A stretch of 64,000 nucleotides of DNA from Candidatus Woesebacteria bacterium GW2011_GWB1_33_22 (GCA_000989765.1 LBOW01000001.1:47660-111659); one strand, 5' to 3'. Numbered from the stretch's first letter, positions 9,168-52,353 are shown. The notes: a model not told the origin generated them from the sequence alone. Numbers and translations are program-made.

Positions 9168-9181
9168 TAGAATACATTTAA

Positions 9182-10180: not shown

Positions 10181-10198
10181 AATAATATTATCTCACTA

Positions 10199-12537: not shown

Positions 12538-12549
12538 ATATATAATAAT

Positions 12550-16120: not shown

Positions 16121-16170
16121 TATAAAAACCAATTATACCTTATTAATGCAAAGTGTGATATATTTTCTTT

Positions 16171-16668
16171 ATGTTAAAGCAGTTTATTATTGTTTTTTTC
16201 ACAGTTATTTTTCTAATCTTTATTTCAAGCACGAAACCCTTTTTAGTCATAGGTTCTGATGAATATATATTTGATACTCAAATCACGCAAAAAACAACTT
16301 TAATAAATAAGATTTTTGAGAAGACAGGTTTTTTAATTCGGTTGAATAAATCTAGTAAGGCAAAATATTGGAGAAAACTTGTGGATAAAAGGTTGGCCGA
16401 ATTCAAACTTGTTGTCGAGAATGACGATAAGGGAGCTTTCGAGGAAACTTCATCAAGATATTCAACCTATGTTGCCAATTATTCAGATTATCTTTTAAAT
16501 TCAAATTTAGTTAATGAAAAAAGTATCACCAAGCAGCAATTTGATAAACATCAAGAAATCTTAAACACATTTAAGGATAAATATGAATACAATTCTGCTT
16601 GGTGGATTTTAGTTATGCACCCAATTAATACGTTGGAAATCTTCAAATTAAAGGTCGAAAAATTATGA
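16171..16668 (+). CDS. N-terminally anchored protein, DUF5667-like (second copy)
   Basis: N-terminal hydrophobic helix. FLIRLNKSSKAKYWRKLVDKRLAEFKLVVEND resembles the same pattern as 14633-15178. Confidence 0.4.
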   Translation: MLKQFIIVFFTVIFLIFISSTKPFLVIGSDEYIFDTQITQKTTLINKIFEKTGFLIRLNKSSKAKYWRKLVDKRLAEFKLVVENDDKGAFEETSSRYSTYVANYSDYLLNSNLVNEKSITKQQFDKHQEILNTFKDKYEYNSAWWILVMHPINTLEIFKLKVEKL

Positions 16669-27984: not shown

Positions 27985-28989
27985 ATGAAATATGTAGCTT
28001 TGGTAGGTTATGGTTATTGGGGAACAAACCTTTTGAGGAATTTTGTGGAGACTAAAAATTGTGAAGTTGTATATGTTTGTGATAATGATATCACTAGACT
28101 AAAACCAATTAGAAAAAGATATCCTTCAATTATTCTTACTTCGAATTATGATGAAATTCTTTTTGATAAAGAAATTGATGCAGTGATAATAGCTACTCCC
28201 ACAAGGTTTCATCACGATCTAGCTAAGAAAGCTATGGAGGCGGGAAAGGATGTTTTAATTGAAAAACCGATGGCTTTATCAATGTCCGAAGCAAAAGATT
28301 TAGTTGTGGTATCAAAAAAAACGAAGAGAATAATAATGGTTGACCATACATTTTTGTTTACACCAGCTGTAAGAAAGTTAAAAACAATTATTGATAACGG
28401 TGAAATCGGTGACATTGTTTATATTGATTCAGTAAGAACAAATCTCGGACTTTTTCAAACTGACTCCAATGTTTCCTTTGACTTAGCAACCCACGATATT
28501 GCAATACTACAATATTTATTAAATGCTAGTCCTACAGTAATTACCTCGGTGGCGGAGTCTTTCTATGGTACACAGGAAGAAATCTTTTACATTCATTTAA
28601 ATTACCCAAACAAAATAACTTGCCATTTACATGTAAGTTGGCTTTCCCCACTTAAGGTGAGGAAAATGATGATAGTTGGAACTAAAAAAATGATAGTGTA
28701 TGATGATGTTGAACAATCTGAAAAGATAAAAATTTATGATAAGGGAGTTGTGTTTGATCAAATAAGAATTGGGTATAGGTCAGGAGATGTCAATTCTCCC
28801 AATATTGATATTAAAGAGGCGTTAGGAACCATGGCATTAGAGTTTATAGATACTTTGGAAACCAGAAAAGAGCCTGTAAGTAACGGTCTTTTTGGTTTGT
28901 CAATTGTAAATATATTAGAAATGTCTAATAATTCTTCTCGAAGTAGTAAAACAATTATTATTAAAAATATAAATGACAATAAAAAATGA
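27985..28989 (+). CDS. Gfo/Idh/MocA-family NAD(P)-dependent sugar oxidoreductase (WbpB-like)
   Basis: MKYVALVGYGYWGTNLL Rossmann start; EKP motif; family length about 330 aa. Confidence 0.8.
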   Translation: MKYVALVGYGYWGTNLLRNFVETKNCEVVYVCDNDITRLKPIRKRYPSIILTSNYDEILFDKEIDAVIIATPTRFHHDLAKKAMEAGKDVLIEKPMALSMSEAKDLVVVSKKTKRIIMVDHTFLFTPAVRKLKTIIDNGEIGDIVYIDSVRTNLGLFQTDSNVSFDLATHDIAILQYLLNASPTVITSVAESFYGTQEEIFYIHLNYPNKITCHLHVSWLSPLKVRKMMIVGTKKMIVYDDVEQSEKIKIYDKGVVFDQIRIGYRSGDVNSPNIDIKEALGTMALEFIDTLETRKEPVSNGLFGLSIVNILEMSNNSSRSSKTIIIKNINDNKK

Positions 28990-29440
28990 TGTCAAAATAG
29001 GTAAAAGAGTAAAAATTTATCACAAAAATTTAGTTAATTTGTATGGTTGTAGCATAGGCGAAGATACAAAAATTGGAACTTTTGTTGAAATACAGGCGGG
29101 TGCAAAAATAGGTTCCAGATGTAAAATTTCATCACATACATTTATTTGTGAAGGAGTAACAATAGAAGACGAAGTGTTTATTGGTCATGGTGTTATGTTT
29201 ACAAATGATAAATATCCTAGGGCAGCAATCGGTGGGCATTTAAAGGAAAATGATGATTGGAAGCTCGAAAAAACAGTTATTAAAAAAGGTGCATCTGTTG
29301 GCAGTGGTGCAATTATTCTCCCTGGAATAATAGTAGGGGGAAATGCAATGGTGGGAGCCGGTTGTGTGGTCAGTAAAGATGTTCCATCAAACTCTCTAAT
29401 TTATGGAGTACCTGGTAAAATTGTTAAAAAATTAAAATGA
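28973..29440 (+). CDS. hexapeptide-repeat (left-handed beta-helix) N-acetyltransferase (WbpD/PglD-like)
   Basis: Repeated [LIV]-G-x-x-x-x hexads: IGEDTKIGTFVEIQAGAKIGSRCKISSHTFICEGVTIEDEVFIGHGV. Confidence 0.8.
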   Translation: MTIKNDVKIGKRVKIYHKNLVNLYGCSIGEDTKIGTFVEIQAGAKIGSRCKISSHTFICEGVTIEDEVFIGHGVMFTNDKYPRAAIGGHLKENDDWKLEKTVIKKGASVGSGAIILPGIIVGGNAMVGAGCVVSKDVPSNSLIYGVPGKIVKKLK

Positions 29441-31521
29441 TACCCTTTTTAGATTTAAAAAAGCAACACAACAGCATCAAAAAAGATATTGATCTTGCAG
29501 TTGGTAAAGTTCTAGAAGATTCAAATTTTATTCTTGGTTATGAAGTTGATGAATTTGAAAAAAATTTTGCTAATTATATAGGCGTTAAAAGATGTATTGG
29601 TGTTTCTACAGGAGAGTCGGCAATTTTATTGATATTAAAAGCTTTGGAAGTAGGACCTGGAGACGAAGTTATTACTGTTGCAAATACTTTTATTGCTACG
29701 GTTTTTCCAATAATTACACTTGGAGCAAAACCCGTTCTGATTGATATTGATCCTAAGACCTATCAGATGGATTTAAATATGTTGCAAAAATCAATAACAC
29801 CCAAAACTAAGGTTATACTTCCTGTACATCTGTTTGGTATACCTGCGCCGATAGCGGAAATCTTAAAAATTGCTAAGGAAAAAAATATATTTGTTGTTGA
29901 AGATGCATGTCAGGCTCATGGATCATCAATTGCTGGTAAGATGTGTGGATCTTTTGGCATAGCCTCGGCCTTCTCGTTTTATCCAGGAAAGAATCTTGGA
30001 GCTGCAGGAGATGCTGGCGCAATAACTACAAACGATGAAGATTTAGCAAATAAACTAATTGCAATGAGAAATATAGGCCAATTTGAAAAATATAAACATG
30101 ATTTATTTGGATACAACTTTAGAATGGATACGATCCAGGCCGCTTTTTTAAGTGTAAAGTTAAAACATCTTAACTTATGGAATAAAAAGAGAAGAGAAAT
30201 TGCAAATTACTATAATAAATTATTATCTGATTTACCCGTGGTTTTACCGCCAAAATTAAAAAATGGGTTGGTAGAAAATTATCATCTTTATGTAATAAAA
30301 AGCCAAAAAAGAAATGAGTTGTTGGAATTTCTGAAACAAAATGAAATTTCAACAGGTATTCATTATCCAATACCTCTTCATATGCAAAAATCACTTTCCT
30401 TTTTGTGTTATAATGAAGAAAGTTTTCCTGTAACTAAAAAATATGCAACAGAAATTTTATCACTTCCAATGTTTCCTGATATGACGAAAAACCAAGTGAA
30501 AGAAGTATCTGACAAAATTCATGAATTTTATCGAAACCTTGATAGATTGGGAAAAATTGTAATTACGGGTGGTGCTGGATTTATAGGTTCTTCAGTTGCT
30601 GATTATTTATTAGAACATTTTGCTGAAAAAATAGACAAAATTGTAGTTTTAGATAATTTTGTCAGAGGTAAAAAGGAAAATTTAATTAAGGCTCTAAAAA
30701 ATAAGAAAGTGGAACTAATTGAGGGTGATATTCGAGATAAAGAGTTGGTTGATAAGTTGATTAAAGGTGCAAATTATGTAATTCATGAGGCAGCTATCAA
30801 AAATATTTTATGCGATGAAGATCCACGGCTTTCCTTAGAAGTATTAGTTAATGGAACATTTAATGTTATGGAAGCCTGTGTTAAGCATAAAGTCAGAAAA
30901 TTGGTATTTAATTCATCAGCTTCAGTTTATGGACAACCTTTAAAAATACCAATGCAGGAAACAGATAATTATAATAATGAAGCATTTTATGGTGCAGGAA
31001 AAATTGCCAACGAACAAATGGCAAAAGCTTTTAATAAAATGTACGGCCTAAATTATGTTTGCCTACGACCTTTCAATATCTATGGACCCAGAATGGATAT
31101 ATCAGGCATATATACTGAAGTTTTTATTAGATGGTTGGACTCAATAGATAATGGAAAGGCGCCTGTTATCTTTGGAGATGGCACAAACACCTTAGACTTT
31201 GTTTACATCGAAGATGTAGTTAGGGCAACTATCACGGCATTATTAAGTGATATAAAACAAGGTTTTTATAATGTCGGATCTGGGGATGAAGTTAGCTTAA
31301 ACAAACTAGTAGAAGTACTTCTTAAATGTAATAAATCTGATCTTAAAGTAGAACACATTCAACAGATTAGAAAATCTAACTATGTAACTAGAAGAAAAGC
31401 TGATATAGTAAATGCAAAGAAAGATTTAGGGTTTATTGCCACCACCTCATTAGAAACTGGTGTTAAAAAACTTATTGAATGGAGGAAGAAAACAAAGAAA
31501 AATGAAAATACCGTTAATTAA
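29437..31521 (+). CDS. bifunctional fusion: DegT-family sugar aminotransferase (N) + NAD-dependent SDR epimerase (C, GalE/WbpP-like)
   Basis: N-domain has SFYPGKNLGAAGDAGAI (PLP Lys). C-domain starts KIVITGGAGFIGSS with a YGAGK catalytic motif and NSSASVYG (epimerase-like, no DEVYG dehydratase motif). Single uninterrupted 694-aa ORF. Confidence 0.75.
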   Translation: MIPFLDLKKQHNSIKKDIDLAVGKVLEDSNFILGYEVDEFEKNFANYIGVKRCIGVSTGESAILLILKALEVGPGDEVITVANTFIATVFPIITLGAKPVLIDIDPKTYQMDLNMLQKSITPKTKVILPVHLFGIPAPIAEILKIAKEKNIFVVEDACQAHGSSIAGKMCGSFGIASAFSFYPGKNLGAAGDAGAITTNDEDLANKLIAMRNIGQFEKYKHDLFGYNFRMDTIQAAFLSVKLKHLNLWNKKRREIANYYNKLLSDLPVVLPPKLKNGLVENYHLYVIKSQKRNELLEFLKQNEISTGIHYPIPLHMQKSLSFLCYNEESFPVTKKYATEILSLPMFPDMTKNQVKEVSDKIHEFYRNLDRLGKIVITGGAGFIGSSVADYLLEHFAEKIDKIVVLDNFVRGKKENLIKALKNKKVELIEGDIRDKELVDKLIKGANYVIHEAAIKNILCDEDPRLSLEVLVNGTFNVMEACVKHKVRKLVFNSSASVYGQPLKIPMQETDNYNNEAFYGAGKIANEQMAKAFNKMYGLNYVCLRPFNIYGPRMDISGIYTEVFIRWLDSIDNGKAPVIFGDGTNTLDFVYIEDVVRATITALLSDIKQGFYNVGSGDEVSLNKLVEVLLKCNKSDLKVEHIQQIRKSNYVTRRKADIVNAKKDLGFIATTSLETGVKKLIEWRKKTKKNENTVN

Positions 31522-32632
31522 ACCTAACTTTGACAAAAAGGAAGAAAAAGCCGTTATAGATGTATTAAGATCTGGTTGGGTCACTCAAGGACCTAAAGTT
31601 GAAGAATTTGAAAGAATGGTGGCTTCTTATGTTGGAGCAAGATATGCAGTAGCAGTTACTTCTGCAACAACAGGTTTGTTCTTAGCCCTTCATGTAAAGG
31701 GAATTGGTGCTGGAGATGAAGTTATAGTTCCGTCATTTTCCTTTATAGCAACAGCTAATGTAGTAGTTCACTCTCAAGCTAAACCCATTTTTGTTGATAT
31801 TGATCCAAATACTTTTAATATTGACCCGGAAAAAATTGAAAAGGCTATCTCTAGTAGAACAAAAGCAATTATTCCTGTAGATCAAGTTGGTTTACCATCT
31901 GATTTAGATAAGATTCATAAAATAGCCAAAGCTCATAATTTGATAGTTATTGAAGATGCGGCCTGTGCGATAGGAACTAAGTATAAAGGTAGAAAAATAG
32001 GGTCAATTAGTGAAATGACAGTTTTTTCGTTTCATCCGAGAAAGACTATAACCACGGGAGATGGAGGAATGATTACAACAAATGATAAAAAATTGGCTGA
32101 TCGATTAAAGCTTTTAAGAAACCAAGGTATGGGGGTATCCGATGTTAAAAGACATTCTTCTAAAAAAGTTGTTCAGGAGCAATATCCTGAAATAGGCTTT
32201 AATTTTAGAATGACAGATATTCAGGCTGCAATAGGAATAGAGCAAATGAAAAAGATAGATAGGATTTTGACAAAAAGAGAAAAATTAGCTAAAAGATATG
32301 ATAAGGCATTTTTGTCTTCGAAAAATATTATTCCTCCATATATTCCAAAAGGTTATGAGCACAATAGACAAAGTTATGTAGTTAGGGTAAAAAAGGAATC
32401 TAAAATTAGTAGAGATAATTTAATGCAAAAACTACTTGATTTGGGTATTGCCACAAGACGGGGTGTAATGGCATCTCATTTAGAAAAACCATATGTAAAA
32501 ATGCTTGGGAAAATTAAACTTCCCATTACGGAAGAGGCAACGGCAAATACTATGGTATTGCCACTTTTCCCCAAAATGACGATTTCTGAACAAGATTTTG
32601 TAATTAAAAACATATTGAATTTAACCCAATAG
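31502..32632 (+). CDS. DegT/DnrJ/EryC1/StrS-family sugar aminotransferase (second copy)
   Basis: MKIPLIKPNFDKKEEKAVIDV...SFHPRKTITTGDGGMI. Start chosen at the ATG at 31502; the six-frame ORF extends upstream to 31460. Confidence 0.85.
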   Translation: MKIPLIKPNFDKKEEKAVIDVLRSGWVTQGPKVEEFERMVASYVGARYAVAVTSATTGLFLALHVKGIGAGDEVIVPSFSFIATANVVVHSQAKPIFVDIDPNTFNIDPEKIEKAISSRTKAIIPVDQVGLPSDLDKIHKIAKAHNLIVIEDAACAIGTKYKGRKIGSISEMTVFSFHPRKTITTGDGGMITTNDKKLADRLKLLRNQGMGVSDVKRHSSKKVVQEQYPEIGFNFRMTDIQAAIGIEQMKKIDRILTKREKLAKRYDKAFLSSKNIIPPYIPKGYEHNRQSYVVRVKKESKISRDNLMQKLLDLGIATRRGVMASHLEKPYVKMLGKIKLPITEEATANTMVLPLFPKMTISEQDFVIKNILNLTQ

Positions 32633-32635
32633 TAA

Positions 32636-33760
32636 ATGCAAGATAGTGAATTTAATCATGGAATTGGAGATAACCCATATAATAAACACTCTTGGATTTT
32701 GGGAAATCCTAAAATTGCTAAAAATGTATGGATTGGAGCTTTTACTTTAATTGATGCTTTACACAACGAATTAGAAATTGGTGAAGGAACTGATGTTTCT
32801 TCTGGTGTACAGATATTAACTCACTCAACAGTAAAAAGAGCGATTTCTGAAAGAAGATTCATAGGCATTGAAAGTGCTCCAAGCAAAATAGGTAATTTTT
32901 GCTTTTTGGGAACTCACGCTACTATTTTAATGGGGGTAGAAATTGGTGATCATAGTGTAATCGCTGCTGGATCAGTTGTACCTCAATTTATGAAAATTCC
33001 TGCTTATTCAATGGTTGCAGGAGTCCCTGCAAAAATTATTGGTTCGAGTAAAAAACTCTTAAAAGATGTACCAGATGATTCACTTTCGATTACTATTCCT
33101 GCTTTTAATGAAGAAAAAACAATTGAAAAGGTTGTTAAAGAAGTGGTTCAAGAAGTTTCTAAATTATTTAAGGATTATGAAATACTATTAGTTAACGATG
33201 GGTCAAAAGATAAAACTGGTAAAATTATTGATTTTCTTGCTAAAAAGAATAAACATATTAAAGTTATCCATCATAAAATGAATAAAGGTTTTACTGGAGC
33301 AATGAAATCTTGCTTGTTTAACGCTCAGAAAAACTTAGTATTTTTAGCCCCCGCTGATGGACAATTTAATTTTAAGGAGCTTCATAAATTTATTGAAGCC
33401 ATAAAGGGCTATGATATGGTTATTGGGTATAAGAAAGAATCTAGTGAAGGCTTTTATAGAAAATTTAGCTCTAAATTAATTTATACTTTGTATCAAAAAC
33501 TATTTAATGTTCCTATCAGAGAAATTTCAACGGTATTTATGTGGAGAAAAAATGTAATAGATTCAATTAAGATTGAATCAGCTGATAGGGGATCAATGTT
33601 TTTATATGAATTTTTCTATAAAGCAATAAAAAATAAATTTAAATATGTTGAAATTCCAATTTCTTGGCATAAACGCCGTGGTGGTTTGGCAAAAGGAAGA
33701 AATTTAAAAAATATAATTAAAACCTTGGAGGGGATGATTAAACTAAGGTTGCAAAGTTAA
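32636..33760 (+). CDS. fusion: hexapeptide acetyltransferase (N) + glycosyltransferase family 2 (C)
   Basis: N-terminal LbH repeats (IGAFTLIDA...IGEGTDVSSGV...IGDHSVIAAGSVV), then SITIPAFNEEKTIEKV...LLVNDGSKDKTGKI (GT2). Confidence 0.7.
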   Translation: MQDSEFNHGIGDNPYNKHSWILGNPKIAKNVWIGAFTLIDALHNELEIGEGTDVSSGVQILTHSTVKRAISERRFIGIESAPSKIGNFCFLGTHATILMGVEIGDHSVIAAGSVVPQFMKIPAYSMVAGVPAKIIGSSKKLLKDVPDDSLSITIPAFNEEKTIEKVVKEVVQEVSKLFKDYEILLVNDGSKDKTGKIIDFLAKKNKHIKVIHHKMNKGFTGAMKSCLFNAQKNLVFLAPADGQFNFKELHKFIEAIKGYDMVIGYKKESSEGFYRKFSSKLIYTLYQKLFNVPIREISTVFMWRKNVIDSIKIESADRGSMFLYEFFYKAIKNKFKYVEIPISWHKRRGGLAKGRNLKNIIKTLEGMIKLRLQS

Positions 33761-34662
33761 TTTGAATTTGTTAATTTTTGTAATTCATTAACGATATTTT
33801 TATTTTTAGGTTTTCTAAATTTTTCTAGTGTTTTTATTTGTGTACGTCTAAAGTCGACTTTATATTCTTTATATAAAAAAGCCATTTCTTTCCTTAATAA
33901 TTCTATAGTCATATATTGGCCGTTTCTTTCTGAAAGTGCTCTTTTTGCAAGATCTTCATTTATCCAAACCCCACCAGTGTATCTTTGAGGTTGAGTTTTT
34001 GCAAATCCTATTATTTCATTTGTATCTTTTATTGTGATTTCACCGGAAAGATTCAATTTTGGCTGACCTAAATTATTTGCTACATCGGCAATAATTTGTT
34101 CAAGACTTAGTTTTTCTATTTCTGTAATGGTTTTTTTCGATATGCCTATAATATCTTCAACTGGAGGAATAAAATCCATGGTTCTTGAATCCACTCCGCA
34201 TCTTTTCAAAAACCTAGAAGCAATTTGATTACTAAGCATATATCTAAATTTAAAAAGTTTCCCAATATCATGAATAAGAAGACGAGATTTAATTAACCAC
34301 GGATTTAAATCCGGACCACCATTTTGTTTAATAACTTCTTCAATAGTTTCAGCATATTCTGCAGACATAATTGGATGTGCCCAGAAAATTGGTGAGACTT
34401 TTGTGTCACAATCAGTGGCTAAAAGTTTTAGTAACTTGGCTCCTACTTCAAAGTCTTTTTCAGTAAATTCTTTTTTATGATCTGTAAAAGCTGACCCCTT
34501 GAGGATAACTTTGGCAGGTACAACAAATTTTGCAAATCTATCATGTACTTGGGTAGCTTCCTCTCTAAGAAGATTATCACGTAATTTTTTTTTGTCCGGA
34601 GGCAGTTTTGAGATTATTTCTCGTTCGGTCAAAAAGTATGTATCAGCTATCTCATTTTTCAT
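33757..34662 (-). CDS. HD-domain (metal-dependent phosphohydrolase superfamily) protein
   Basis: WAHPIM ... LLIHDIGK (the HD motif); soluble, 301 aa. Confidence 0.55.
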   Translation of the reverse strand: MKNEIADTYFLTEREIISKLPPDKKKLRDNLLREEATQVHDRFAKFVVPAKVILKGSAFTDHKKEFTEKDFEVGAKLLKLLATDCDTKVSPIFWAHPIMSAEYAETIEEVIKQNGGPDLNPWLIKSRLLIHDIGKLFKFRYMLSNQIASRFLKRCGVDSRTMDFIPPVEDIIGISKKTITEIEKLSLEQIIADVANNLGQPKLNLSGEITIKDTNEIIGFAKTQPQRYTGGVWINEDLAKRALSERNGQYMTIELLRKEMAFLYKEYKVDFRRTQIKTLEKFRKPKNKNIVNELQKLTNSN

Positions 34663-34736
34663 TTGAGGAGAATTATAGGATATTAAAGTAAATATGGCAA
34701 TAATTGAGTTAATTTTATAGTAATATTAATAAACGG

Positions 34737-35093
34737 ATGAATATCTATACAATTGGGATTGTCTTAGTTGGAATGATTATCCTTCTTATTACTGCTGAGG
34801 TAATGAGTCATTATTTTAAAATTCACTCAGATAAATTTTACGTTATTTTTCATTTTGCAGGTGGTGCATTATCTTTCCTTTTATTTTTAAATTTATTTAA
34901 TAATAAACTTCTTGCTTTTTTCTTAGTTTTAGTAATTGGTATACTTTGGGAAATACATGAGTGGATATTATGGAAATTATATATTAAAACAAAATTATAT
35001 AAACCAAAGAGTAAGGATACAATTTGTGATTTGGTAATGGATATTTCCGGAGCGTTAATATTTTATGTTATTGAAATTTTACACATATTTTAA
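34737..35093 (+). CDS. small 3-4 TM membrane protein (GtrA-like size/topology)
   Basis: 118 aa with 3-4 hydrophobic helices, in a locus with GtrB-like enzymes. No motif-level proof. Confidence 0.4.
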   Translation: MNIYTIGIVLVGMIILLITAEVMSHYFKIHSDKFYVIFHFAGGALSFLLFLNLFNNKLLAFFLVLVIGILWEIHEWILWKLYIKTKLYKPKSKDTICDLVMDISGALIFYVIEILHIF

Positions 35094-37788
35094 AAACCTT
35101 TTAAAAAACCATTTTTGGGTTTTGTTAATTCTTGTTGTTTTTATCTCTTATGGCCAGATGCTTTGGATGCAACCGTGGGAAGATGATAACGCCTTGTTTG
35201 TTAAACTGGCAAGCATAGAGGATAGGGTTGGCTTTTTTGGTAAAGGCCCCCTAGGAGAAGGAGTTTATAGATTTGCAGCTGTCCCGTTTATATTAATATA
35301 TAAAATTTTCGGTACGTTTATACCAGCTTACTTTGCATTGCTTTTAATTCTTTATGTTTTAGCTACCTTAACAGTGTATAAAGTACTATCTAAAATTATT
35401 GGCGAGACTGGAGGGAGAGTTGTTGGTTTTATTTATGCTTGTGGTTATATTACCTCTGACAGTTTTTGGAGAATGGCAAATAGTGCAACCACAAGCATAA
35501 GTATAATACTTATTAGTTTGTTTACATTATTTTGTTGGCAATATTATAAGCAACAAAAAATTAAGTATTATTTATTGTCACTTTTTTTCTTCCTGATAGC
35601 TACAATAATTGCTGTTTCAAGAACTCACTATCTTGTTGCTGTGGCAATAATTTTTGAATTTACCCTTTTTACCTTTAGAAATTTCCCCAAAAATGTCATA
35701 AAGTTGGTTTTACGCCTAATTCCATTTTTGTATATTTTTTACAATTTAGTTTTATCTTCCAGTGATTCAAGGACCGATGGAGTAGGAAATTATATTATTT
35801 CAATCCTAAAAGGAAAATTGTATTTGACCTATGGATTTTTTTCATCAATTTCAAATTTATTTATTCCGGATTATTTAATTAATTTTATTTTTGATATTCA
35901 AAATAAGTTGACAGTGTTTTTACAAGCCAAAATTCCTATTGCTTATTTATTATTATTTGGTGTTTTTACAATTTTAATATTGTTATCTTTTAAAGGTTTA
36001 AAAAACAAAAAGTATCTTACAATTTTATTTTATTTTATACTTTTAATATGGTTCTTTGTTTCCAAAAAAGTTTTCTTGGAATCATCCTTAGGATTAGGAG
36101 AAAAAGGTATTTTTGTTGGAATACTTGGTGGAGTTATCCTAATTTTGTTAAGTGCATTTTTTATTATTCTTCGTAAAAATAGACAGATATTTTTATTTTT
36201 TATAAGCTGGCTTGTTATTAATTTGTTGGCTTATACTTCTTACTTTCCTACGGTTACCTATGAAACAATTAACCGTTATTTAGCTCACTCCTTTTTTTCT
36301 CTAACATGCGTTTTAGGTATATTATATATTTCACTACCAGACAAAAGTAAAATAAATTTTTTGGTCAAATTAATAATAATTTTATTTGGCATTGTTAATT
36401 TAATAAACGCTGTAATTTATCAAAATAAAATTCTTTATACAAGAAGTTTTCCAGTTAAAAGTTTTTATCAACAACTGTCTATTTTGCTACCTGAAATTAA
36501 GAAAGACGATGTTTTGTATTTTGATGTTTCAAACGATTCACAACGCTTATTTCGTGATGCAATTTCAGCGGCGATGATACCAGACACTGGATCGTTTGGT
36601 TGGCGTTATCAAATATATAGATATGATTTTAGTTTAGAAACAGATTTTTCAAGTTTATATAAAAGAATAACAGAGGAAAAAGTAAAAATAGATAACATCC
36701 ATGCTTTTTGGTATTCCAAAGGTATTCTTACTGATATATCCAAAAATGTGCAAGATTATTTCTTAAATAAAAATTCATATTATTATTCTCAATATAGTTT
36801 AGAAAAAACAAGTGAAGCGATTATAAACAGAAACAAGGATAAAACATTGTGGTTTCAGCCAGAACTTATTGCCGACATCAAATCTCCAATTGAAAGTTAT
36901 GCACCCATTGAATGTGGTATCACTTTTGTGGCCAATCCACTTAAGACTAATAAATTACTTTTTCCACTATATTGGGAATTATCTAATGACAAAACAAAAA
37001 ATGTATTTAATGACCCAGTACAAAAGAAACTTGCCTTACTATATAAGAAAGATATGGATAATTTTGTTAAAAATTCCATTTTTAGTACTAGTAGCCAATG
37101 GTCTGATCGAGTAACTGAAAATTTATATGACAATGATATTGGTACTGTATGGCAATCTGATAGAGTACTCTGGCAAGATAAAAGAGAATATCTAGAAGTT
37201 TTGTTACCTACTGTTCAAAACATAAATAGAATAGTTTGGACACCACCTTCATATCAAGCTAGCGTACCTACAAATTATGAAATTGAAATATCACTTGATG
37301 GAAAGAGTTGGAGAAAAATTAAAACAATAACTAATAAAGAAATAACCAGTCAGATTCAACAAGAGGTAAAATTTGAACCAATAACAGCAAAATACGTAAA
37401 GATGATAATAACTGAAACCCTAGGAGGCGATTCCCCGATGATATCCGAGTTTCGTGTAATACCTAGTAGCTTATCAACGCTTGATTTAAAAAGTGTAGAC
37501 ACATATCTTGAAAGGCCATTTATATTTATTGAAAATGAACAAATTTTTAATAACACGTTAACAAGTTTTGGACAAACAGGCGTTGCTCAATTGTATTACT
37601 TAGCAAATAAAGATAATGTTTGGATTAATACAAGTAAATTAAATATTGGAATTATTTATGATGGAAAAGCTCATTACTATAAAGTTAATTTTCCTGCAGG
37701 TGGGACTAGAATTGAAAATATCAAAGTTTCAAACTTTGCAGTTCCTGGTACAATAACTTTATATAACATCGAATGCAAAACAAACTGA
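35065..37788 (+). CDS. large polytopic membrane protein with C-terminal F5/8 type C (discoidin) domain; candidate GT-C glycosyltransferase (tandem paralog A)
   Basis: N-terminal motif QPWEDDNALFVKL, about 13 TM helices. C-terminal SQWSDRVTENLYDNDIGTVWQSD...YLEVLL...AKYVKMIITET...ISEFRV matches the discoidin/F5_F8_type_C pattern. Confidence 0.7.
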   Translation: MLLKFYTYFKNLLKNHFWVLLILVVFISYGQMLWMQPWEDDNALFVKLASIEDRVGFFGKGPLGEGVYRFAAVPFILIYKIFGTFIPAYFALLLILYVLATLTVYKVLSKIIGETGGRVVGFIYACGYITSDSFWRMANSATTSISIILISLFTLFCWQYYKQQKIKYYLLSLFFFLIATIIAVSRTHYLVAVAIIFEFTLFTFRNFPKNVIKLVLRLIPFLYIFYNLVLSSSDSRTDGVGNYIISILKGKLYLTYGFFSSISNLFIPDYLINFIFDIQNKLTVFLQAKIPIAYLLLFGVFTILILLSFKGLKNKKYLTILFYFILLIWFFVSKKVFLESSLGLGEKGIFVGILGGVILILLSAFFIILRKNRQIFLFFISWLVINLLAYTSYFPTVTYETINRYLAHSFFSLTCVLGILYISLPDKSKINFLVKLIIILFGIVNLINAVIYQNKILYTRSFPVKSFYQQLSILLPEIKKDDVLYFDVSNDSQRLFRDAISAAMIPDTGSFGWRYQIYRYDFSLETDFSSLYKRITEEKVKIDNIHAFWYSKGILTDISKNVQDYFLNKNSYYYSQYSLEKTSEAIINRNKDKTLWFQPELIADIKSPIESYAPIECGITFVANPLKTNKLLFPLYWELSNDKTKNVFNDPVQKKLALLYKKDMDNFVKNSIFSTSSQWSDRVTENLYDNDIGTVWQSDRVLWQDKREYLEVLLPTVQNINRIVWTPPSYQASVPTNYEIEISLDGKSWRKIKTITNKEITSQIQQEVKFEPITAKYVKMIITETLGGDSPMISEFRVIPSSLSTLDLKSVDTYLERPFIFIENEQIFNNTLTSFGQTGVAQLYYLANKDNVWINTSKLNIGIIYDGKAHYYKVNFPAGGTRIENIKVSNFAVPGTITLYNIECKTN

Positions 37789-40442
37789 TTAAGTTTATCT
37801 TTAAATATTACTTAGCAATTATATTATTGATATTAGTTATATCATTTGGACAGACCTTATTAATGATTCCATGGCAAGACGATAATGCCCTCTTTTTTAA
37901 GTTAACTCATATCCAAGAAAGAGCAGGTTTTTTAGGTTCAGGAATATTTGGCGAAAGAGCCTATAAGTATACTGCCTTTTTTTATTATCCTATCTATTTA
38001 ATTTTTAAATTTCAGCCAGTATATTATTTTGGTATTAATTTTATTCTGTACGGAGTTTCAGTTTATATTTTATATAGAATAATTTCAAAAATGATAAATA
38101 ATCAGGTTGGGATGATGACAGGTTTTTTATATGCATGTGGATTTATTGGTTCAGATAGCTTTATCAGATTGTTTAACTCTCAAATTACTAGTCTAAGTAT
38201 AATCTTAGTTAGTACTTTCATCTATACATATTGGGTTTTTTACAAACAGAAGAAGAACGTGTGGTATTTTATTTCACTTTTTATTTTTTTTCTGGCGGCT
38301 GAGTTTGCAAGAGCTAGAACTCATTATATGATTGCAGTTCCTGTTGTTTTCGAATTACTATTTTTAACTTTTAATAAACCTATAATTAAATCAATATTTT
38401 TTTCTATTTTAAGAATATTTCCATTTGTACCGATTTTTTACCGTTATGTTATTTTAGAAGATTATCGTTCGGGAGGTGTGGGAGATTTATTAAACTCTTT
38501 ATTAAAAGGCGAGATCTATAAAATTTTTGGCTTTTTGTCGTCATTTTCTAATATGATTCTTCCTGACTGGTTTACCAAAAACTCCTTAAATAGTACAAAT
38601 GGTGTGTTTTATTCCTGGGGATTTGCTTTAGTAATGTTAATTATGTGTATATTCGTTTTTGTTAAATTCAAAAGACAAAGACTATATTCTTTGTCCCTTT
38701 TAACAACTAGTTTAATATGGGGGTATTTATCGTTAAATATTTTTATTCATCCAGCATTACATGTCACACAGGAGCAAATTTACTTAGCATTTATAGGTGG
38801 ACAATTGATTTTGCTATTTATTTTTGGATTTTTTTTGATTGATAAAAGTAAAAAACTATTGTATATATTTTTTTTGGCCGGAATATTTATAAATTTAGCA
38901 GCTTATTGGGCGTATAGCCCAACTCTGGTATACGAAAAAATTAATAGATATCTTTCACACTCCTTTCTTTATTTAGTGATATTACTTCCACTACTAGTCT
39001 ATTCAATAAAAAACAATAAAATATCAAATATATTTTTTGTAATTGTATTCTTTTGGGGATTGGGAAATATGTATGGTTCCTTTTTATATCAAAGACAAAT
39101 TTATTTAAACAGAGTTGTGCCCGTAAACTCGTTTTATAAAAAACTTGACGATTATCTTGTTACAATTGAAAAAGGAGATATTCTATTTTTTGATGTAGCG
39201 GATGACGCGCGAAGTTATTTTTCTGACGCCTTTTCTGTTGCTCAAATGCCAGATTCGACAGCAATTGCATGGAGGTATGGTATTGATAGATATGATTTTG
39301 AGATGTTTCAAACCTCTTCAGATTTTTTTAATTATTTACAAAAAAATACAGTTGATAAACAAAAAATTCATACATTTTTTTATTCAAAGGCAGGATTAAT
39401 TGAGACAACTAATGATTTTATTTTATATTTAGATAGTAATAAAATTGATGATTTGGATATTAAGATAAGTGACTCTTATCCTATTTTTGATAATATTATA
39501 ATTAATAACCAGATAGATAAATCTAGCATTAATTTTACTAAAGATCTATCCTTTTTTAGCCTTATACCTTTAGATTTACTTGTTCAAATTTCTGGTTACC
39601 CTCTATCAACGAAAGAAATTAAATTCCCTTTTAGTTATGGATTAGAAAATACAATGAGAAATAATTTTAGGGATAATCAGGATATATATTTGACATCCCG
39701 ATATAAAAAATATAAAGAAGAATTTAAAAAAACAAAAGTTAGTGTAAGTAGCGATTGGCAAGATAGAGTAGTAAGTAATTTAATTGATGGAGACTACAAT
39801 ACTTCATGGCAGGCCAATAGACTTTTGTGGTTAAAGGATGCTCAATTCATTTTTATTGAATCTGACAACAAGACGTTATTTAATAAGTTAGTTTTTGTAA
39901 ATTCTTATTCTGATAATACTCCACTTGAATTTGACATTTTAGGCTCAGACAATAATAGCGATTGGTTTTTGATTAAAGCATATAAGTCAGATCTCAGACT
40001 TAAAAACGGAGATATGCAAATTGTTGACTTTATACCACAAAGTTTTAAATTTTTAAAAATAAATTTTAAAAAAACATTAAATGATGATTCTCCTGCACTT
40101 TCTGAATTATGGCTTGTGCCATCAGAATTTGATGATTTGAATATTATTCAAACAGAGAAGTATTTAGAAAATTCATTCAAAAACATACCAGATGCTAATT
40201 TTTATAATCAATTATTAAAAGATAATGATTACGTTGGTACAATAGAGCTTTCTTGGTGGAATAATAAAAATTTTGGCTGGCAAACATCTTTTGATTCAAC
40301 CGCAAAGGTAATTTTTGATGGTAAATCTAGGTGGTATAAAATAAAAGTAACTCCCGGTGGGACAAAAATAAATCAACTTAAGTTTTTACTAAAAGATTTT
40401 CCCGCAAAATTTAAGATTCATGCAATCAAAGTTTTATATTAA
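37773..40442 (+). CDS. large polytopic membrane protein with C-terminal discoidin-like domain (tandem paralog B)
   Basis: IPWQDDNALFFKL, GFLYACGFIGSDSF, ARTHYMIAV blocks are shared with paralog A. C-terminal SSDWQDRVVSNLIDGDYNTSWQAN... discoidin-like. Confidence 0.7.
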   Translation: MQNKLIKFIFKYYLAIILLILVISFGQTLLMIPWQDDNALFFKLTHIQERAGFLGSGIFGERAYKYTAFFYYPIYLIFKFQPVYYFGINFILYGVSVYILYRIISKMINNQVGMMTGFLYACGFIGSDSFIRLFNSQITSLSIILVSTFIYTYWVFYKQKKNVWYFISLFIFFLAAEFARARTHYMIAVPVVFELLFLTFNKPIIKSIFFSILRIFPFVPIFYRYVILEDYRSGGVGDLLNSLLKGEIYKIFGFLSSFSNMILPDWFTKNSLNSTNGVFYSWGFALVMLIMCIFVFVKFKRQRLYSLSLLTTSLIWGYLSLNIFIHPALHVTQEQIYLAFIGGQLILLFIFGFFLIDKSKKLLYIFFLAGIFINLAAYWAYSPTLVYEKINRYLSHSFLYLVILLPLLVYSIKNNKISNIFFVIVFFWGLGNMYGSFLYQRQIYLNRVVPVNSFYKKLDDYLVTIEKGDILFFDVADDARSYFSDAFSVAQMPDSTAIAWRYGIDRYDFEMFQTSSDFFNYLQKNTVDKQKIHTFFYSKAGLIETTNDFILYLDSNKIDDLDIKISDSYPIFDNIIINNQIDKSSINFTKDLSFFSLIPLDLLVQISGYPLSTKEIKFPFSYGLENTMRNNFRDNQDIYLTSRYKKYKEEFKKTKVSVSSDWQDRVVSNLIDGDYNTSWQANRLLWLKDAQFIFIESDNKTLFNKLVFVNSYSDNTPLEFDILGSDNNSDWFLIKAYKSDLRLKNGDMQIVDFIPQSFKFLKINFKKTLNDDSPALSELWLVPSEFDDLNIIQTEKYLENSFKNIPDANFYNQLLKDNDYVGTIELSWWNNKNFGWQTSFDSTAKVIFDGKSRWYKIKVTPGGTKINQLKFLLKDFPAKFKIHAIKVLY

Positions 40443-40445
40443 ATG

Positions 40446-42527
40446 TTATTCAAGTACAGTAACAATTGCACTTTTACTTTTGGTTAAGCATGTATCACCA
40501 TTTTCCATCTCAAAGACAATAACTTTAGCTTCTCTGGCAACAAAGTAAAAATCAAAGTTAGAAGTTAAGGTTTTTAATTCTGCATGTTTTAGTTGATTTT
40601 GAGCAATATCTTCATTTTCTCTTATCCAATCGCTATTATTCGTACTTGTGCGCACATATCCAGTTTGAACTAATGAACAATTCTTAGTTGGTATAATAAA
40701 TGAAGTCTTCATTATTTTTTCAGTCTTGGGTAATGTTATGGTTATATTTTTTTTATCTTTTTGAGTATTGACAGAAATAATTAATTTTTTTTGGTTTTTA
40801 AACATTTCTTTTACATACTTTTCATCGTTTTTCCAAACTTTAGCAATTGCTACTCCATCAACCTTAACTTCATACAGGGGATTCATAACAGTGTTTAGGT
40901 AGTTTAGGTTGTACCAGTGCATCGGAGAATAATCATATGTAAGTTCTAATACATATTCACCTTTATGCTCAGGTCCAGACCAATAATTTGGAGATAGAGA
41001 GATATCAGGTCTTAATTTAAATCTTGGAATGTTGCTTATTGAACCTACTGGTAAAGTCAAATATGCATTTTGCTCTGCATATTGATTTAACCATAAAATA
41101 GCAGGGTAATAGGCATTCCCATTTGAGTTGCCCCAAGAATTAATATTCTTTTCTTTAGCACCAGCTAAGCCTCCAACTATTTTGTTAAAAAAAACATTTT
41201 CATTAGGATGAATATTAACCAGTTTAATAATTACAGGTATAAAAATAATATTAGTTATTAATATAAAAATATAAATGTTTAATTTACCTAATTTTTTATA
41301 AACTAATCCAGCAGTTATACCACAAAGCATCGCCAATATTGGTATAAATTCCATTATTAACCTTACTCCACCATAACTTAGAGCTCCAAAAAAAGATATT
41401 CTTCCGACAATTGTAATTAATGACAAAATCAACAAAAGCGAAAAACTTTTACTTTTCAATAAACTTCTAACAAAGAATAATGAGAATATAGAAATGATTA
41501 TTGTGGGAATCGGAGTTGTGTAAAATATCCAAGTAATTGGGTAAGTATTAAATATTTTTAAAAGATAATAATTTTGAGGTTGAGATGGTGCTGAATAACC
41601 CACCTCAAGATAGAAATCTATAATTCTTTTTATTCCTAAAATTGGATCTTTCCAAAGAGTTGGAAAACTACCAATTAAGATTGTAAAAACAATAACCGGG
41701 AGTATTATTAGTAGAATCCAAAATTTAGTCAAAAATCTTAAAAAGTCTTTTGTTTTGTAAAAATAAAAAAACAGCCATATAGATAATGGAATAATAATGA
41801 AAATAATATTTAATTTAGTTGAGAGACCCATTGCAAAAAATAAAATTGTTAATATTCCCCAAAAATATTTTTGCTTTTTAATGAAAATATAAAAAGAAAT
41901 CAATGTAAGGGAATAAAAGCAGGTAATGATTGGATCTTTAATATTAAAATGTTGCTCACCAACAAAAAGAGGGTAAGTTGTAAGAACTAATGATGAAACA
42001 ATAGATTGAATTATGCCAAATTCTTTCCACATAAATATAGCAATAGTAAAAACTAGTAATGATGCGACTGTAATTTCAAATAAATGATAACTTTCTAAAT
42101 CATCTAAAATACCAATTTTTTGATAGAAGATTTTATTAAAAAAAGCAGCCAAAACTCCATTTAAGGCAGGATGACCGTAAGTATTATCAATATCGATGTG
42201 ATACTCGCCATTCCAGTCTTCATCTTGATAATAACTTCTTCGGAATTTAGAATCAGATAAGTAGGGGTTGTTATTAACTTCTTGAAAATGTTTTTCAGAG
42301 TCGCGAAAATCTGAACTATCCGAAGTTCCCTTAAGAGCTTTGTATTTAGGAATATCGTTGTAATTTTTTTGTCCAGTTAAAAAATAATGGAGAAATGCTT
42401 GTCCTCGACGAAAATGAAAAGGTTCATCCCAATTTATTCCATAATCACCCAATGTTTTAAATGCTATTAGAAAAAACAATATTGGAATAATTAAAATTAA
42501 TAAAAATATTAAAAAACTTTTTTTCAT
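40446..42527 (-). CDS. GT-C fold membrane glycosyltransferase (ArnT/PMT-like), paralog of 12550-14598
   Basis: DYGINWDEPFHFRRGQ (DE motif), about 11 TM helices, conserved blocks shared with 12550-14598, C-terminal soluble domain. Confidence 0.65.
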   Translation of the reverse strand: MKKSFLIFLLILIIPILFFLIAFKTLGDYGINWDEPFHFRRGQAFLHYFLTGQKNYNDIPKYKALKGTSDSSDFRDSEKHFQEVNNNPYLSDSKFRRSYYQDEDWNGEYHIDIDNTYGHPALNGVLAAFFNKIFYQKIGILDDLESYHLFEITVASLLVFTIAIFMWKEFGIIQSIVSSLVLTTYPLFVGEQHFNIKDPIITCFYSLTLISFYIFIKKQKYFWGILTILFFAMGLSTKLNIIFIIIPLSIWLFFYFYKTKDFLRFLTKFWILLIILPVIVFTILIGSFPTLWKDPILGIKRIIDFYLEVGYSAPSQPQNYYLLKIFNTYPITWIFYTTPIPTIIISIFSLFFVRSLLKSKSFSLLLILSLITIVGRISFFGALSYGGVRLIMEFIPILAMLCGITAGLVYKKLGKLNIYIFILITNIIFIPVIIKLVNIHPNENVFFNKIVGGLAGAKEKNINSWGNSNGNAYYPAILWLNQYAEQNAYLTLPVGSISNIPRFKLRPDISLSPNYWSGPEHKGEYVLELTYDYSPMHWYNLNYLNTVMNPLYEVKVDGVAIAKVWKNDEKYVKEMFKNQKKLIISVNTQKDKKNITITLPKTEKIMKTSFIIPTKNCSLVQTGYVRTSTNNSDWIRENEDIAQNQLKHAELKTLTSNFDFYFVAREAKVIVFEMENGDTCLTKSKSAIVTVLE

Positions 42528-45113: not shown

Positions 45114-45835
45114 AATATCAAACCAAGAATCTTCAGCCACACAGCAAAATCGGTTTATCTTTTATAAGTTTATTAAAACATTATTATCATGTTAGTAATT
45201 TAGATAATTTGAGACAATCTTTGAAAGATGACTTAATCGCCACCATATTTATGGGGTCTGGGAGTGGTATATTTGGATCGTTCATAAGGGGTATGTATTT
45301 TAAGTTATTTTTAAACTATAAACTTCCATCTATGATTGGAAATCGCTTTCGTATTATAAATTCGTCAATGGTTAAGGTTGGTAAGAACTTGTGGATTAAA
45401 GATGATGTTACGATATTTGCGGGGGACAAGATGACAATTGGCGATGGCTGTGTTTTGTGTGATAGATCAAGTATTTGGTCCAGTAAAGACGGTTTAAAAA
45501 TTGGAGATGGATTTTCATTAGGTATAGGTGGATATATCTGTGGAACTGAAGGAAGGATAGCTATAGGTAATAAAGTAATTATGGCTGATAATGTACGTTT
45601 ATACAGTTGGAATCATAGTTTATATTCCAGTTTAAAAACGTTTTCAGAGAATGAAATTTCTCATCGAGGTATTACGATTGGTAACAATTGCTGGCTTGGA
45701 TCTGGATGTGTAATATTAGATGGTGTGAATTTAGGTGATAACTGTGTTGTAGGTGCGGGAGCTGTAGTTACAAAGTCATTTCCTAAAAATTCGTTAATCG
45801 CGGGGGTCCCAGCAAAAGTTGTTAAAACAATATGA
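45101..45835 (+). CDS. hexapeptide-repeat O-acetyltransferase (WcaF/maltose O-acetyltransferase-like)
   Basis: C-terminal GITIGNNCWLGSGCVILDGVNLGDNCVVGAGAVV LbH repeats. Confidence 0.75.
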   Translation: MEKMKYQTKNLQPHSKIGLSFISLLKHYYHVSNLDNLRQSLKDDLIATIFMGSGSGIFGSFIRGMYFKLFLNYKLPSMIGNRFRIINSSMVKVGKNLWIKDDVTIFAGDKMTIGDGCVLCDRSSIWSSKDGLKIGDGFSLGIGGYICGTEGRIAIGNKVIMADNVRLYSWNHSLYSSLKTFSENEISHRGITIGNNCWLGSGCVILDGVNLGDNCVVGAGAVVTKSFPKNSLIAGVPAKVVKTI

Positions 45836-47496
45836 CTAAATTACTAGAATCTTATTTTATATATATTTTATTAGTCGTATCAGTTTTAGTTTGGTTTGTA
45901 TCCTATTCAAAAGTTCCATTTATTTTTTTTCAGCAAGATGAGTTAATGGGGTTTGGTCTTTTTATTCTAAACAGGGTTGATATGTTGTATACGGGCCTTG
46001 GATTTAAAGGAATGGTACATTTTGTGCCGGTCACAATGTCACTTTCCTTCGGAATTTTTAATATTTTTGGCCTAAATCATATTCCTTACAATATATTTGG
46101 GTTGATATTTCACACAATTAATGGACTCCTTGTTTATCTATTGGGTCAAAAGATATTTAAGAATCGTTTATATTCACTCCTTGCTCTGATAATGTTTTTT
46201 TCAAGTAGCTCTGGCGCAGAGTTGGTTATGTGGCCTGTTATAAATTTAAACACAATTTCACTGTCCTTTTCACTCCTTGCTATGTATGTTTTAATCTCAT
46301 CGTATATAAAAGATGGGTATTTACAAATTAAGAAGTCTATTTACATTTCTATATTATTTTTACTCTCTGTTTTCTCAGTAGAATACGCAGCTGGACTTAT
46401 TTTTATCATTCCTGTCACCGCATTTTTAATGGATAGAAAAAATAGTGGAATAAAAAAACTAACTCAAATCTGGCCATTTTATTTAACGGTAATGATATTT
46501 TTAATACTTAGATTTGTTCCCTCTCTTTTTTTAAGAGAATTGAATACCTTAAATTCTGTCCTTGAGACTGGGGTTTTTAGTAGAGCCATGGGTTTAATTC
46601 GATTGCCACTTATTTATGTTTCCCAGACCTTTTTGGGTCAAAATGCATTAATAAACATTTCTCAACTTATATCTAGTGTTTTTTGGGGAAACACAACAAA
46701 CACTCAATTTGCAGAGGGGGTCATTTATAAATATGTAGCGTCCGTATTGGGAGTATTTATTGTTATTATTTTTCTAAAGTTGTTTTCGAAATTTACTAAA
46801 TTAGATAAAAAATATTTATTAATTTTCCTAAGTTTTATTATCTTCTCTTCGCTACCTTTTATCTTAGTTCCTGGACAGTTGTTTTCAATATTTTCATCTA
46901 GGTATTTATATTTTGGTGGTGTTGGGTATGCTTTTATTTTGGTCTTGATATTGCAATTAATTGTAAATCTCAAAAAAAATAGAATTACCCTATTCTATAT
47001 AATATTTTTAGTTTCAATGATCCTCGGTGGAGTATATGGTAATTATAAAAAAGGCAATGCTCTTTATAACATTGGGAACCTGAGGGTTCAAATTTTAAGA
47101 AGTATTAAAAAAGACCATCCAACACTTCCACAAAAAGTTATTTTTTATACAGATAGCAACAAAAGTTATTATGGTTTGCCTGACGAGGATAAGATTCTAC
47201 CTTTTCAGTCTGGTCTAGGGCAAACACTACTTTTATGGTATTATTCAGACGAAAAGTTTTCAAAAAGTTTTTTTAAAAATGAATACCTTTGGGGCATTCT
47301 TTCAGAAGGCTATAAGGAAATTGATGACAGGGGATTAGGGTATTTTAGAGATTTTGAGAGACTTAAAAATGCAGTTAATGATAATAATCTAAATCCCGAA
47401 TCAGTTATAGCATTTAAGTGGGATTATTATACTAATACATTAACTGACACAACAAACGAAGTTAGAAATAAACTTAAGAATGAAAATTATAAATAA
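45832..47496 (+). CDS. polytopic membrane protein, candidate GT-C glycosyltransferase
   Basis: About 13 TM helices; N-terminal loop with FFQQDELMGFG (DE motif); hydrophilic C-terminal about 130 aa. Confidence 0.5.
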   Translation: MTKLLESYFIYILLVVSVLVWFVSYSKVPFIFFQQDELMGFGLFILNRVDMLYTGLGFKGMVHFVPVTMSLSFGIFNIFGLNHIPYNIFGLIFHTINGLLVYLLGQKIFKNRLYSLLALIMFFSSSSGAELVMWPVINLNTISLSFSLLAMYVLISSYIKDGYLQIKKSIYISILFLLSVFSVEYAAGLIFIIPVTAFLMDRKNSGIKKLTQIWPFYLTVMIFLILRFVPSLFLRELNTLNSVLETGVFSRAMGLIRLPLIYVSQTFLGQNALINISQLISSVFWGNTTNTQFAEGVIYKYVASVLGVFIVIIFLKLFSKFTKLDKKYLLIFLSFIIFSSLPFILVPGQLFSIFSSRYLYFGGVGYAFILVLILQLIVNLKKNRITLFYIIFLVSMILGGVYGNYKKGNALYNIGNLRVQILRSIKKDHPTLPQKVIFYTDSNKSYYGLPDEDKILPFQSGLGQTLLLWYYSDEKFSKSFFKNEYLWGILSEGYKEIDDRGLGYFRDFERLKNAVNDNNLNPESVIAFKWDYYTNTLTDTTNEVRNKLKNENYK

Positions 47497-52182: not shown

Positions 52183-52353
52183 ATGTATAATTGTAGTGTG
52201 AATAATATCTCAAAAATATTAATAGGCTTATCTTTTTTAGGTTTTTTAATAATAGGCTTTTTACTTTTAACTAACCACCTCGGATTAGCGACCAAAATAT
52301 CTGGTTATATATTTTTTATATTGATTCTTGGTATATGCTTAAAAACAAACTAA
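52183..52353 (+). CDS. possible small two-TM peptide (56 aa), unannotated in the ORF track
   Basis: ATG at 52183 gives MYNCSVNNISKILIGLSFLGFLIIGFLLLTNHLGLATKISGYIFFILILGICLKTN, with two clear hydrophobic helices. It fills the only sizeable gap (52171-52334) in a run of same-strand genes. No strong RBS. Confidence 0.2.
   Translation: MYNCSVNNISKILIGLSFLGFLIIGFLLLTNHLGLATKISGYIFFILILGICLKTN

Follow-up and report, generated by a model that had tools for sequence, protein, structure and literature searches.

Tandem discoidin-domain membrane proteins in a Woesebacteria glycan island as predicted GT-C glycosyltransferases

Relation to described GT-C systems

GT-C glycosyltransferases that carry a carbohydrate-binding module (CBM) are known from the Emb proteins, AftD and family GT136. 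Solved GT-C enzymes carry their proposed catalytic Asp just after the first transmembrane helix (TM1), and hold the donor phosphate by basic and aromatic residues (PMC11127046). The founder of GT136, ORF12 of Citrobacter youngae, is encoded in a surface-glycan locus together with a polyprenyl-phosphate sugar synthase, has its proposed catalytic Asp after TM1, and ends in a β-rich CBM for acceptor binding (PMC11127046).

Our results concern two adjacent genes, ORF A and ORF B, in a 64-kb stretch of DNA (hereafter the window) from Candidatus Woesebacteria bacterium GW2011_GWB1_33_22. We predict that both encode GT-C-fold membrane glycosyltransferases that use a polyprenyl-phosphate-linked sugar as donor and a surface glycan, bound by the CBM, as acceptor, a reading to which we assign a probability of about 0.75. 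Like the GT136 system, the locus pairs a GT-C gene with that of a (here putative) polyprenyl-phosphate sugar synthase; further resemblances are the position of the candidate catalytic Asp after TM1, the C-terminal β-rich CBM (here predicted to bind the acceptor), and the surface-glycan setting. In contrast to GT136, to which sequence similarity is undetectable, the proteins have 13 instead of 11 TM helices, and their CBM is of the discoidin/CBM32 type within a multi-domain tail of ~430 residues. Moreover, the putative synthase is an acetyltransferase–GT2 fusion whereas that of GT136 is of the phosphoribosyl type, no MATE or GtrA flippase gene adjoins the pair, and the host belongs to the Patescibacteria.

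The combination of a GT-C domain with a CBM is likewise shared with Emb and AftD, and the gene context in part matches that of three-component systems. The parallel with Emb drawn in an earlier, sequence-only reading of this DNA was apt. AftD pairs with our full-length model along its whole length (Foldseek E = 2e-8). Yet, the likeness to EmbA, EmbB, EmbC and AftD is confined to the level of the fold. The Pfam models Arabinose_trans and GT-C_AftD did not match ORF A, ORF B or any of 46 relatives, while CBM_AftD was touched weakly by 9 of these relatives. Furthermore, the CBM is a CBM32, and an arabinofuranose donor pathway is not indicated.

The acceptor of ArnT is lipid A, which to our knowledge Patescibacteria are not expected to make. 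ArnT also differs from ORF A and ORF B by lacking a CBM. Neither of the two proteins matched the ArnT-related model PMT_2 (PF13231; gathering score 26.1 bits) at E ≤ 0.1, and a profile–profile comparison with alignments on both sides linked their TM domain to a neighbouring PMT_2 family at a probability of only 74%.

ORF A (35065–37788, 907 aa) consists of a 13-TM GT-C domain, extracytoplasmic α/β and β-sandwich domains, a CBM32 and a terminal β-sandwich. ORF B (37773–40442, 889 aa) is its full-length paralog; both genes and all of their domains lie on the plus strand. BLASTP aligned the two proteins in a single collinear alignment from TM1 to the C-terminus, with 34% identity over ~890 residues (E = 2e-149). 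This similarity is far past chance, and hence the two are true full-length paralogs. The genes overlap by 16 nt (37773–37788), as read directly from the ATG of ORF B at 37773 and the TGA of ORF A at 37786–37788. We accepted this start of ORF B because the N-terminus so obtained lines up with TM1 in every member of the family. The sequence-only reading had described the same two paralogous ORFs and the same overlap; both ORFs are intact at exactly the coordinates it gave, and all peptide strings it quoted were found in their translations.

Membrane domain and C-terminal module

The TM domain of ORF A spans aa 1–475 (35065–36489). Its PWEDDNALF motif (aa 37–45; 35173–35199) opens outer loop 1 and contains the putative catalytic acid pair; in ORF B the corresponding motif is PWQDDNALF (aa 33–41; 37869–37895). 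The surrounding stretch, GQxLxMxPW[QE]DDNALFFKL, is conserved in all 46 family sequences. D41 is invariant and D40 is conserved in at least 90% of them, and both are kept in ORF A as well as ORF B.

Both proteins have 13 predicted TM helices. With the helices of the predicted model taken as TM segments, the family-wide mean number of Lys and Arg in short loops was 10.3 on the predicted inner side versus 2.6 on the outer side. According to this positive-inside count, the N-terminus is cytoplasmic, and both the DD loop and the C-terminal domains face outward. Together with the 46-sequence alignment, the count puts D40 and D41 directly after TM1 on the outer face. Acidic residues in the first extracytoplasmic loop, right after TM1, are one of the traits by which members of the GT-C superfamily are recognized. 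The other polar residues that are invariant or nearly so (K47, R136, R186, H188, Y189, R236, R404 and H408) are all found on the outer side, in loops or at the ends of helices. ORF B retains the equivalents of all of these residues and of D40 and D41. Judging from their positions, the conserved polar residues may cluster in one pocket.

The AlphaFold2 model, built from the 46-sequence alignment (pLDDT 89.4, pTM 0.78), shows 13 long helices up to residue 474, followed by an α/β region, a β-sandwich, the CBM32 and a last β-sandwich. Its structural matches to GT-C glycosyltransferases span 316–384 residues and include Pmt4 (score 19.8), AftA (18.4), ALG12 (18.4), STT3B (17.5), Pmt2 (17.1), AglB (17.1), ArnT (16.5), PglB (15.6) and GPI mannosyltransferase I (15.1). 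Since CBM32 matches dominated the full-length Foldseek search, we built a separate model of the TM domain (pLDDT 87.5, pTM 0.88). The top 17 matches of this TM-only model in the PDB were all GT-C enzymes (STT3A/B, PglB, ALG12, AglB, ArnT), and DPY19 followed at rank 20. These matches were consistent but weak, with E-values of 4e-3 to 3e-2 and TM-scores of at most 0.44. The list indicates that the fold is GT-C, with no close relative among the solved enzymes. The domain thus has the other trait of the superfamily, a multi-pass arrangement of 7–13 TM helices that resembles solved GT-C structures. These results bear out the ~13 TM helices that the sequence-only reading had counted, in agreement with the AlphaFold helices and the positive-inside count, and its placement of the DD pair after TM1.

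An alternative explanation might be that ORF A and ORF B are PMT-like enzymes that glycosylate Ser/Thr residues of S-layer proteins, pilins or other surface proteins instead of modifying a polysaccharide. We consider this unlikely.

Our preferred reading, in which the CBM holds the surface glycan that receives the sugar, draws on the C-terminal part of the proteins. In ORF A, extracytoplasmic α/β and β-sandwich linker domains (aa 480–670; 36502–37074) lead to an F5/8 type C domain (CBM32, discoidin; aa 675–796; 37087–37452), and a terminal β-sandwich follows (aa 838–906; 37576–37782), whose resemblance to CBM_6 is weak (E = 0.04). The F5/8 type C domain of ORF A scored 55 bits in Pfam (E = 1e-14; cutoff 28.2 bits). 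The F5/8 type C-like domain of ORF B (aa 657–770; 39741–40082) came just below this cutoff (27.7 bits, E = 3e-6), and is further backed by its collinearity with the CBM32 of ORF A and by a match to YeCBM32 (E = 0.002). The profile of the 46-sequence family matched solved CBM32 structures in the PDB (4lks, E = 5e-13; 2j7m and 2j1a, 2e-11). The module thus combines a PF00754 match, above the gathering score in ORF A, with a β-sandwich that can be superposed on solved CBM32s, and the C-terminal discoidin modules noticed earlier are supported for both proteins. The F5/8 type C domain was retained in all 46 relatives and in all 10 distant relatives. Because the distant relatives keep it too, the fusion of GT-C and CBM32 is a trait of the family.

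Sequence family and tandem copies

The first ~480 residues of ORF A and ORF B had no match in Pfam, and neither protein had a match in NCBIfam; both stay below every curated GT family threshold of these two collections. Searches of PDB sequences with the TM domain (as single sequence, full profile and TM-only profile) returned nothing, with the TM-only profile even at E ≤ 10. PMT_2 was matched weakly (E ≤ 0.1) by 13 of the 46 relatives, with a best E-value of 6.6e-6, and by none of the 10 distant relatives. These weak matches, together with the profile–profile link to the neighbouring PMT_2 family, indicate that the family is a divergent branch of a known superfamily. A comparison by hhalign of the family profile with single neighbouring PMT_2 sequences was uninformative. 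Two further membrane proteins of the window, both unannotated and encoded at 23249–24772 (minus strand) and 45832–47496 (plus strand), were connected to the TM domain with profile–profile probabilities of 96–97%. The latter carries FFQQDE after TM1.

A word-indexed search retrieved 60 relatives, nearly all of 830–920 aa with an F5/8 type C domain, which were deposited as 'discoidin domain-containing protein' with Microgenomates or the Patescibacteria group given as source. Out of 1.84 billion representatives, an exhaustive HMMER run with the TM-only profile picked out 189 sequences at E ≤ 1e-30; relaxing the threshold to 1e-10 raised the number to 311, and to 1e-3 it rose to 609. The family comprises ~190–310 clusters at 50% identity. 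A motif-seeded scan of 185,579 species genomes yielded only 20 loci, whose titles, where informative, name Microgenomates, Woesebacteria or Patescibacteria. Literature searches on GT-C with Patescibacteria, and on discoidin with GT-C, gave no account of the family, and one on CPR, S-layer and mannosyltransferase returned nothing specific.

The sequence-only reading had proposed a new GT-C family, and suggested a motif search by which to define it; the motif was present in all 46 sequences. As a sequence family the proposal stands, because the TM domain has no Pfam, NCBIfam or PDB sequence match. Its novelty is reduced by the weak links to PMT_2, by the records already deposited, and by the fact that both the GT-C plus CBM architecture and the type of pathway were known. 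Hence, we place the family in the GT-C superfamily as a branch that is uncharacterised, distinct in sequence and seen in Patescibacteria (Microgenomates, Woesebacteria).

Besides the window, tandem pairs occur at 5 of the 20 other loci (L001, L002, L003, L004 and L006), a number that falls to 4 if the near-identical L003 and L004, which are 92–93% identical to the window at the DNA level, are taken once. The A–B pair of L004 shows the same 16-nt overlap as the window, and in that of L002 the genes share 41 nt. This overlap or close spacing suggests that the pair forms one operon, and the 16-nt overlap possibly couples their translation. Neighbour-joining placed A and B in two separate deep clades, the former together with the first gene of L002 and the latter together with its second gene. 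The pairs of L001 and L006 represent a separate, younger duplication within the A clade (51–53% identity), and tandem pairs therefore arose at least twice.

The gene overlap in the window led the sequence-only reading to suggest a heterodimer. A and B might indeed form an obligate complex like EmbA–EmbB or Pmt1–Pmt2, in which the overlapping genes would secure stoichiometric co-production. Such a complex would agree with the 16-nt overlap, with the conservation of an overlapping pair of A type and B type in L002 and L003/L004, and with the heterodimers formed by known GT-C paralog pairs, namely Pmt1–Pmt2 (PDB 6p2r, among our structural matches) and EmbA–EmbB (PMC11127046). However, 15 of the 20 other loci have only a single copy within ±10 kb; B-clade genes are solitary in L013 and L021, and A-clade genes in L005, L007 and L008. 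In contrast to Emb, the copy number of the family does not indicate a heterodimer. Moreover, the recurrence of tandem copies, as in the younger duplication of L001 and L006, is expected for diversification of specificity, and every catalytic-type residue is kept in both proteins, so that neither resembles a degenerate scaffold subunit. We therefore regard an obligate heterodimer as quite improbable. Repeated duplication and diversification fits the pattern of pairs better.

Gene neighbourhood and proposed function

The whole window is a glycan-biosynthesis island with at least 8 GT-C-type genes. It contains GT4s, GT2s, methyltransferases, Wzx-type flippases, a carbamoyltransferase, AsnB and several PMT/PMT_2 GT-C genes, and no tRNA gene was found in its 64 kb. 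A block of nucleotide-amino-sugar genes (27985–32632, plus strand) is conserved upstream in L002, L003, L005 and L008. The genes upstream of ORF A encode, in order, a UDP-GlcNAc 3-dehydrogenase-like protein, an N-acetyltransferase, a DegT–epimerase fusion, a PseC/ArnB-like aminotransferase (E = 2e-99 to ArnB), and a fusion of a hexapeptide acyltransferase with a GT2 (32636–33760, plus strand).

This fusion is a candidate for making the lipid-linked donor. The best matches of its GT2 half are the polyprenyl-phosphate sugar synthases PgfS, ArnC, PpgS and AglJ, all far under the curated cutoffs, and it does not have the C-terminal TM helices of ArnC. In L003, L005, L007 and L008, a copy with 57–92% identity stands on the same strand as the A-clade gene and ends 0–55 nt ahead of it; in the window, an insertion of 1.3 kb lies between the GT2 gene and ORF A. 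Members of other clades have a PMT_2-type GT-C gene as immediate neighbour instead of the fusion, and in the window such a gene lies convergent with ORF B (40446–42527, minus strand). An EamA gene follows the fusion in L002, and a formyltransferase gene precedes it in L001. The arrangement recalls that of ArnB/ArnA/ArnC/ArnEF/ArnT.

Two putative parts of a three-component system, a synthase-like GT2 and the predicted GT-C enzyme, are present and linked. No clear flippase gene adjoins the A–B pair in the window. The one candidate, the EamA gene, occurs in L002; the window itself offers just a 118-aa membrane ORF with no family match and distant Wzx-like genes. That the 118-aa ORF (34737–35093) acts as a GtrA-type flippase was considered and rejected, as it matches no family and is missing from the closest relatives.

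We infer donor, acceptor and activity of ORF A and ORF B from these comparisons as follows. A cytoplasmic pathway would yield an N-acylated amino sugar, which the adjacent acetyltransferase–GT2 fusion, the probable maker of the lipid-linked donor, would put on polyprenyl phosphate. After the lipid-linked sugar has been flipped across the membrane, the GT-C domain would transfer the sugar on the extracytoplasmic side, where D41 (or D40 and D41) may act as base or position the acceptor, while the CBM32 would hold the acceptor glycan of the cell surface in place. The two paralogs, which come from two old clades, would most likely add different sugars or form different linkages in successive steps, without an obligate complex.

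It is very unlikely that the two proteins make no use of a lipid-phosphate sugar and are instead membrane-anchored lectins or adhesins, or another GT-C-like class such as a polymerase or ligase with polyprenyl-diphosphate-linked oligosaccharides as donor. In favour of such readings, the curated GT models are not reached, the C-terminal lectin-type domains are large, and the best structural matches include STT3, PglB and AglB, whose donors are diphosphate-linked. Against them, the invariant DD after TM1 with Arg, Lys, His and Tyr on the outer face is the hallmark of catalytic GT-C enzymes, and no Pfam match to Wzy_C or O-antigen ligase was found. Moreover, 13 conserved TM helices would be superfluous in a pure adhesin, and a monophosphate donor is indicated by the adjacent ArnC/PgfS-type GT2. 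Ligases or polymerases of the WaaL/Wzy type are also missing from the top structural matches, and were rejected.

Glycosyl transfer by a GT-C enzyme remains our preferred reading. It leaves the known principles of GT-C catalysis unchanged, and both architecture and type of pathway have precedents. What is gained is a defined family, with a conserved motif, a topology, a fusion to CBM32 and a linkage to an acetyltransferase–GT2 fusion, which curated models recognize in this island only via its lectin domain. It should help annotators to interpret several hundred proteins now listed as 'discoidin domain-containing', and offers glycobiologists a candidate new GT family and a candidate new, CBM32-guided mode of acceptor selection.

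Patescibacteria (CPR) are abundant and mostly uncultured, and their surface, the site of contact with the host, is poorly understood. A bolder reading, less likely than not, is that the family would be a new, Patescibacteria-specific GT-C family at the level of CAZy, in which a discoidin-type lectin directs an unusual N-acylated amino sugar, loaded on polyprenyl phosphate by a dedicated acetyltransferase–synthase fusion, onto a surface glycan or glycoprotein coat. If so, this family and those of the membrane proteins at 23249–24772 and 45832–47496 would represent a radiation of GT-C enzymes specific to the lineage, one that shapes the encounter of these ultra-small episymbionts with their hosts.

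Unannotated membrane proteins resembling the discoidin GT-C family

Two membrane proteins of the window had no match in Pfam or NCBIfam: one of 506 aa, encoded on the minus strand at 23249-24772, and one of 554 aa, encoded on the plus strand at 45832-47496. When their family alignments were compared by hhalign with the profile of the membrane domain of the discoidin GT-C family (the relatives of ORF A and ORF B), the former matched with a probability of 96.8% over 384 columns and the latter with a probability of 96.0% over 158 columns. The 554-aa protein also carries FFQQDE after its first TM helix. The 20 other loci used for comparison include 11 with a homologue of the 45832 gene and 6 with a homologue of the 23249 gene. 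Both proteins are probably additional unannotated GT-C-type enzymes.

Family genes at other loci and an extra segment upstream of ORF A

In L003 and L004, loci of relatives 92–93% identical to the window, the counterpart of ORF A immediately adjoins the acetyltransferase-GT2 gene, and the ~1.32 kb at 33745-35064 is missing. This stretch, which seems to have been inserted or deleted recently within the operon, holds an HD-domain-like ORF (33757-34662, minus strand; Pfam HD at an E-value of only 0.03) and a hydrophobic ORF of 118 aa (34737-35093).

At the single-cell genome locus L010, the tblastn match to the family extends 3.8 kb (region 7961-13835). The full gene (11166-13835) is preceded by a weak partial match to the TM domain (7961-10279, 52 bits), which may represent a second copy, degraded, or a disrupted gene.

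Among the public MAG records with this Patescibacteria-type gene, many bear the title 'uncultured Gammaproteobacteria bacterium' and one, that of L017, bears 'Candidatus Woesearchaeota archaeon'. The titles in question (L005, L007-L009, L012, L013, L016, L017 and L019-L022) look like placeholders or wrong taxonomy.

The glycan island

At 29437-31521 a DegT aminotransferase is fused to an SDR epimerase/dehydratase in one protein of 694 aa; at locus L002 the two activities are encoded by neighbouring separate genes (372 and 316 aa). Two small DUF5667 proteins (14633-15178 and 16171-16668) are encoded on either side of an ArnC-like GT2 gene (15179-16132, minus strand). For an 833-aa ORF (52335-54836), Pfam gave no match and NCBIfam only a faint one, to the trehalose-lipid delivery protein MmpA, at an E-value of 1e-4 and far under the cutoff.

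The window has a GC content of ~29%, and no tRNA was found in its 64 kb. It contains at least eight GT-C-type genes: a PIG-V-like gene (2409), PMT_2 genes (12550, 25741 and 40446), a PMT gene (57922), ORF A and ORF B (35065 and 37773), and a gene at 47480, a close homologue of which has a weak GT-C_AftD match. There are also three GT2 genes resembling ArnC/PgfS, many methyltransferase genes and two Wzx-like flippases. The window is, over its entire length (1-64000), a single glycan island.
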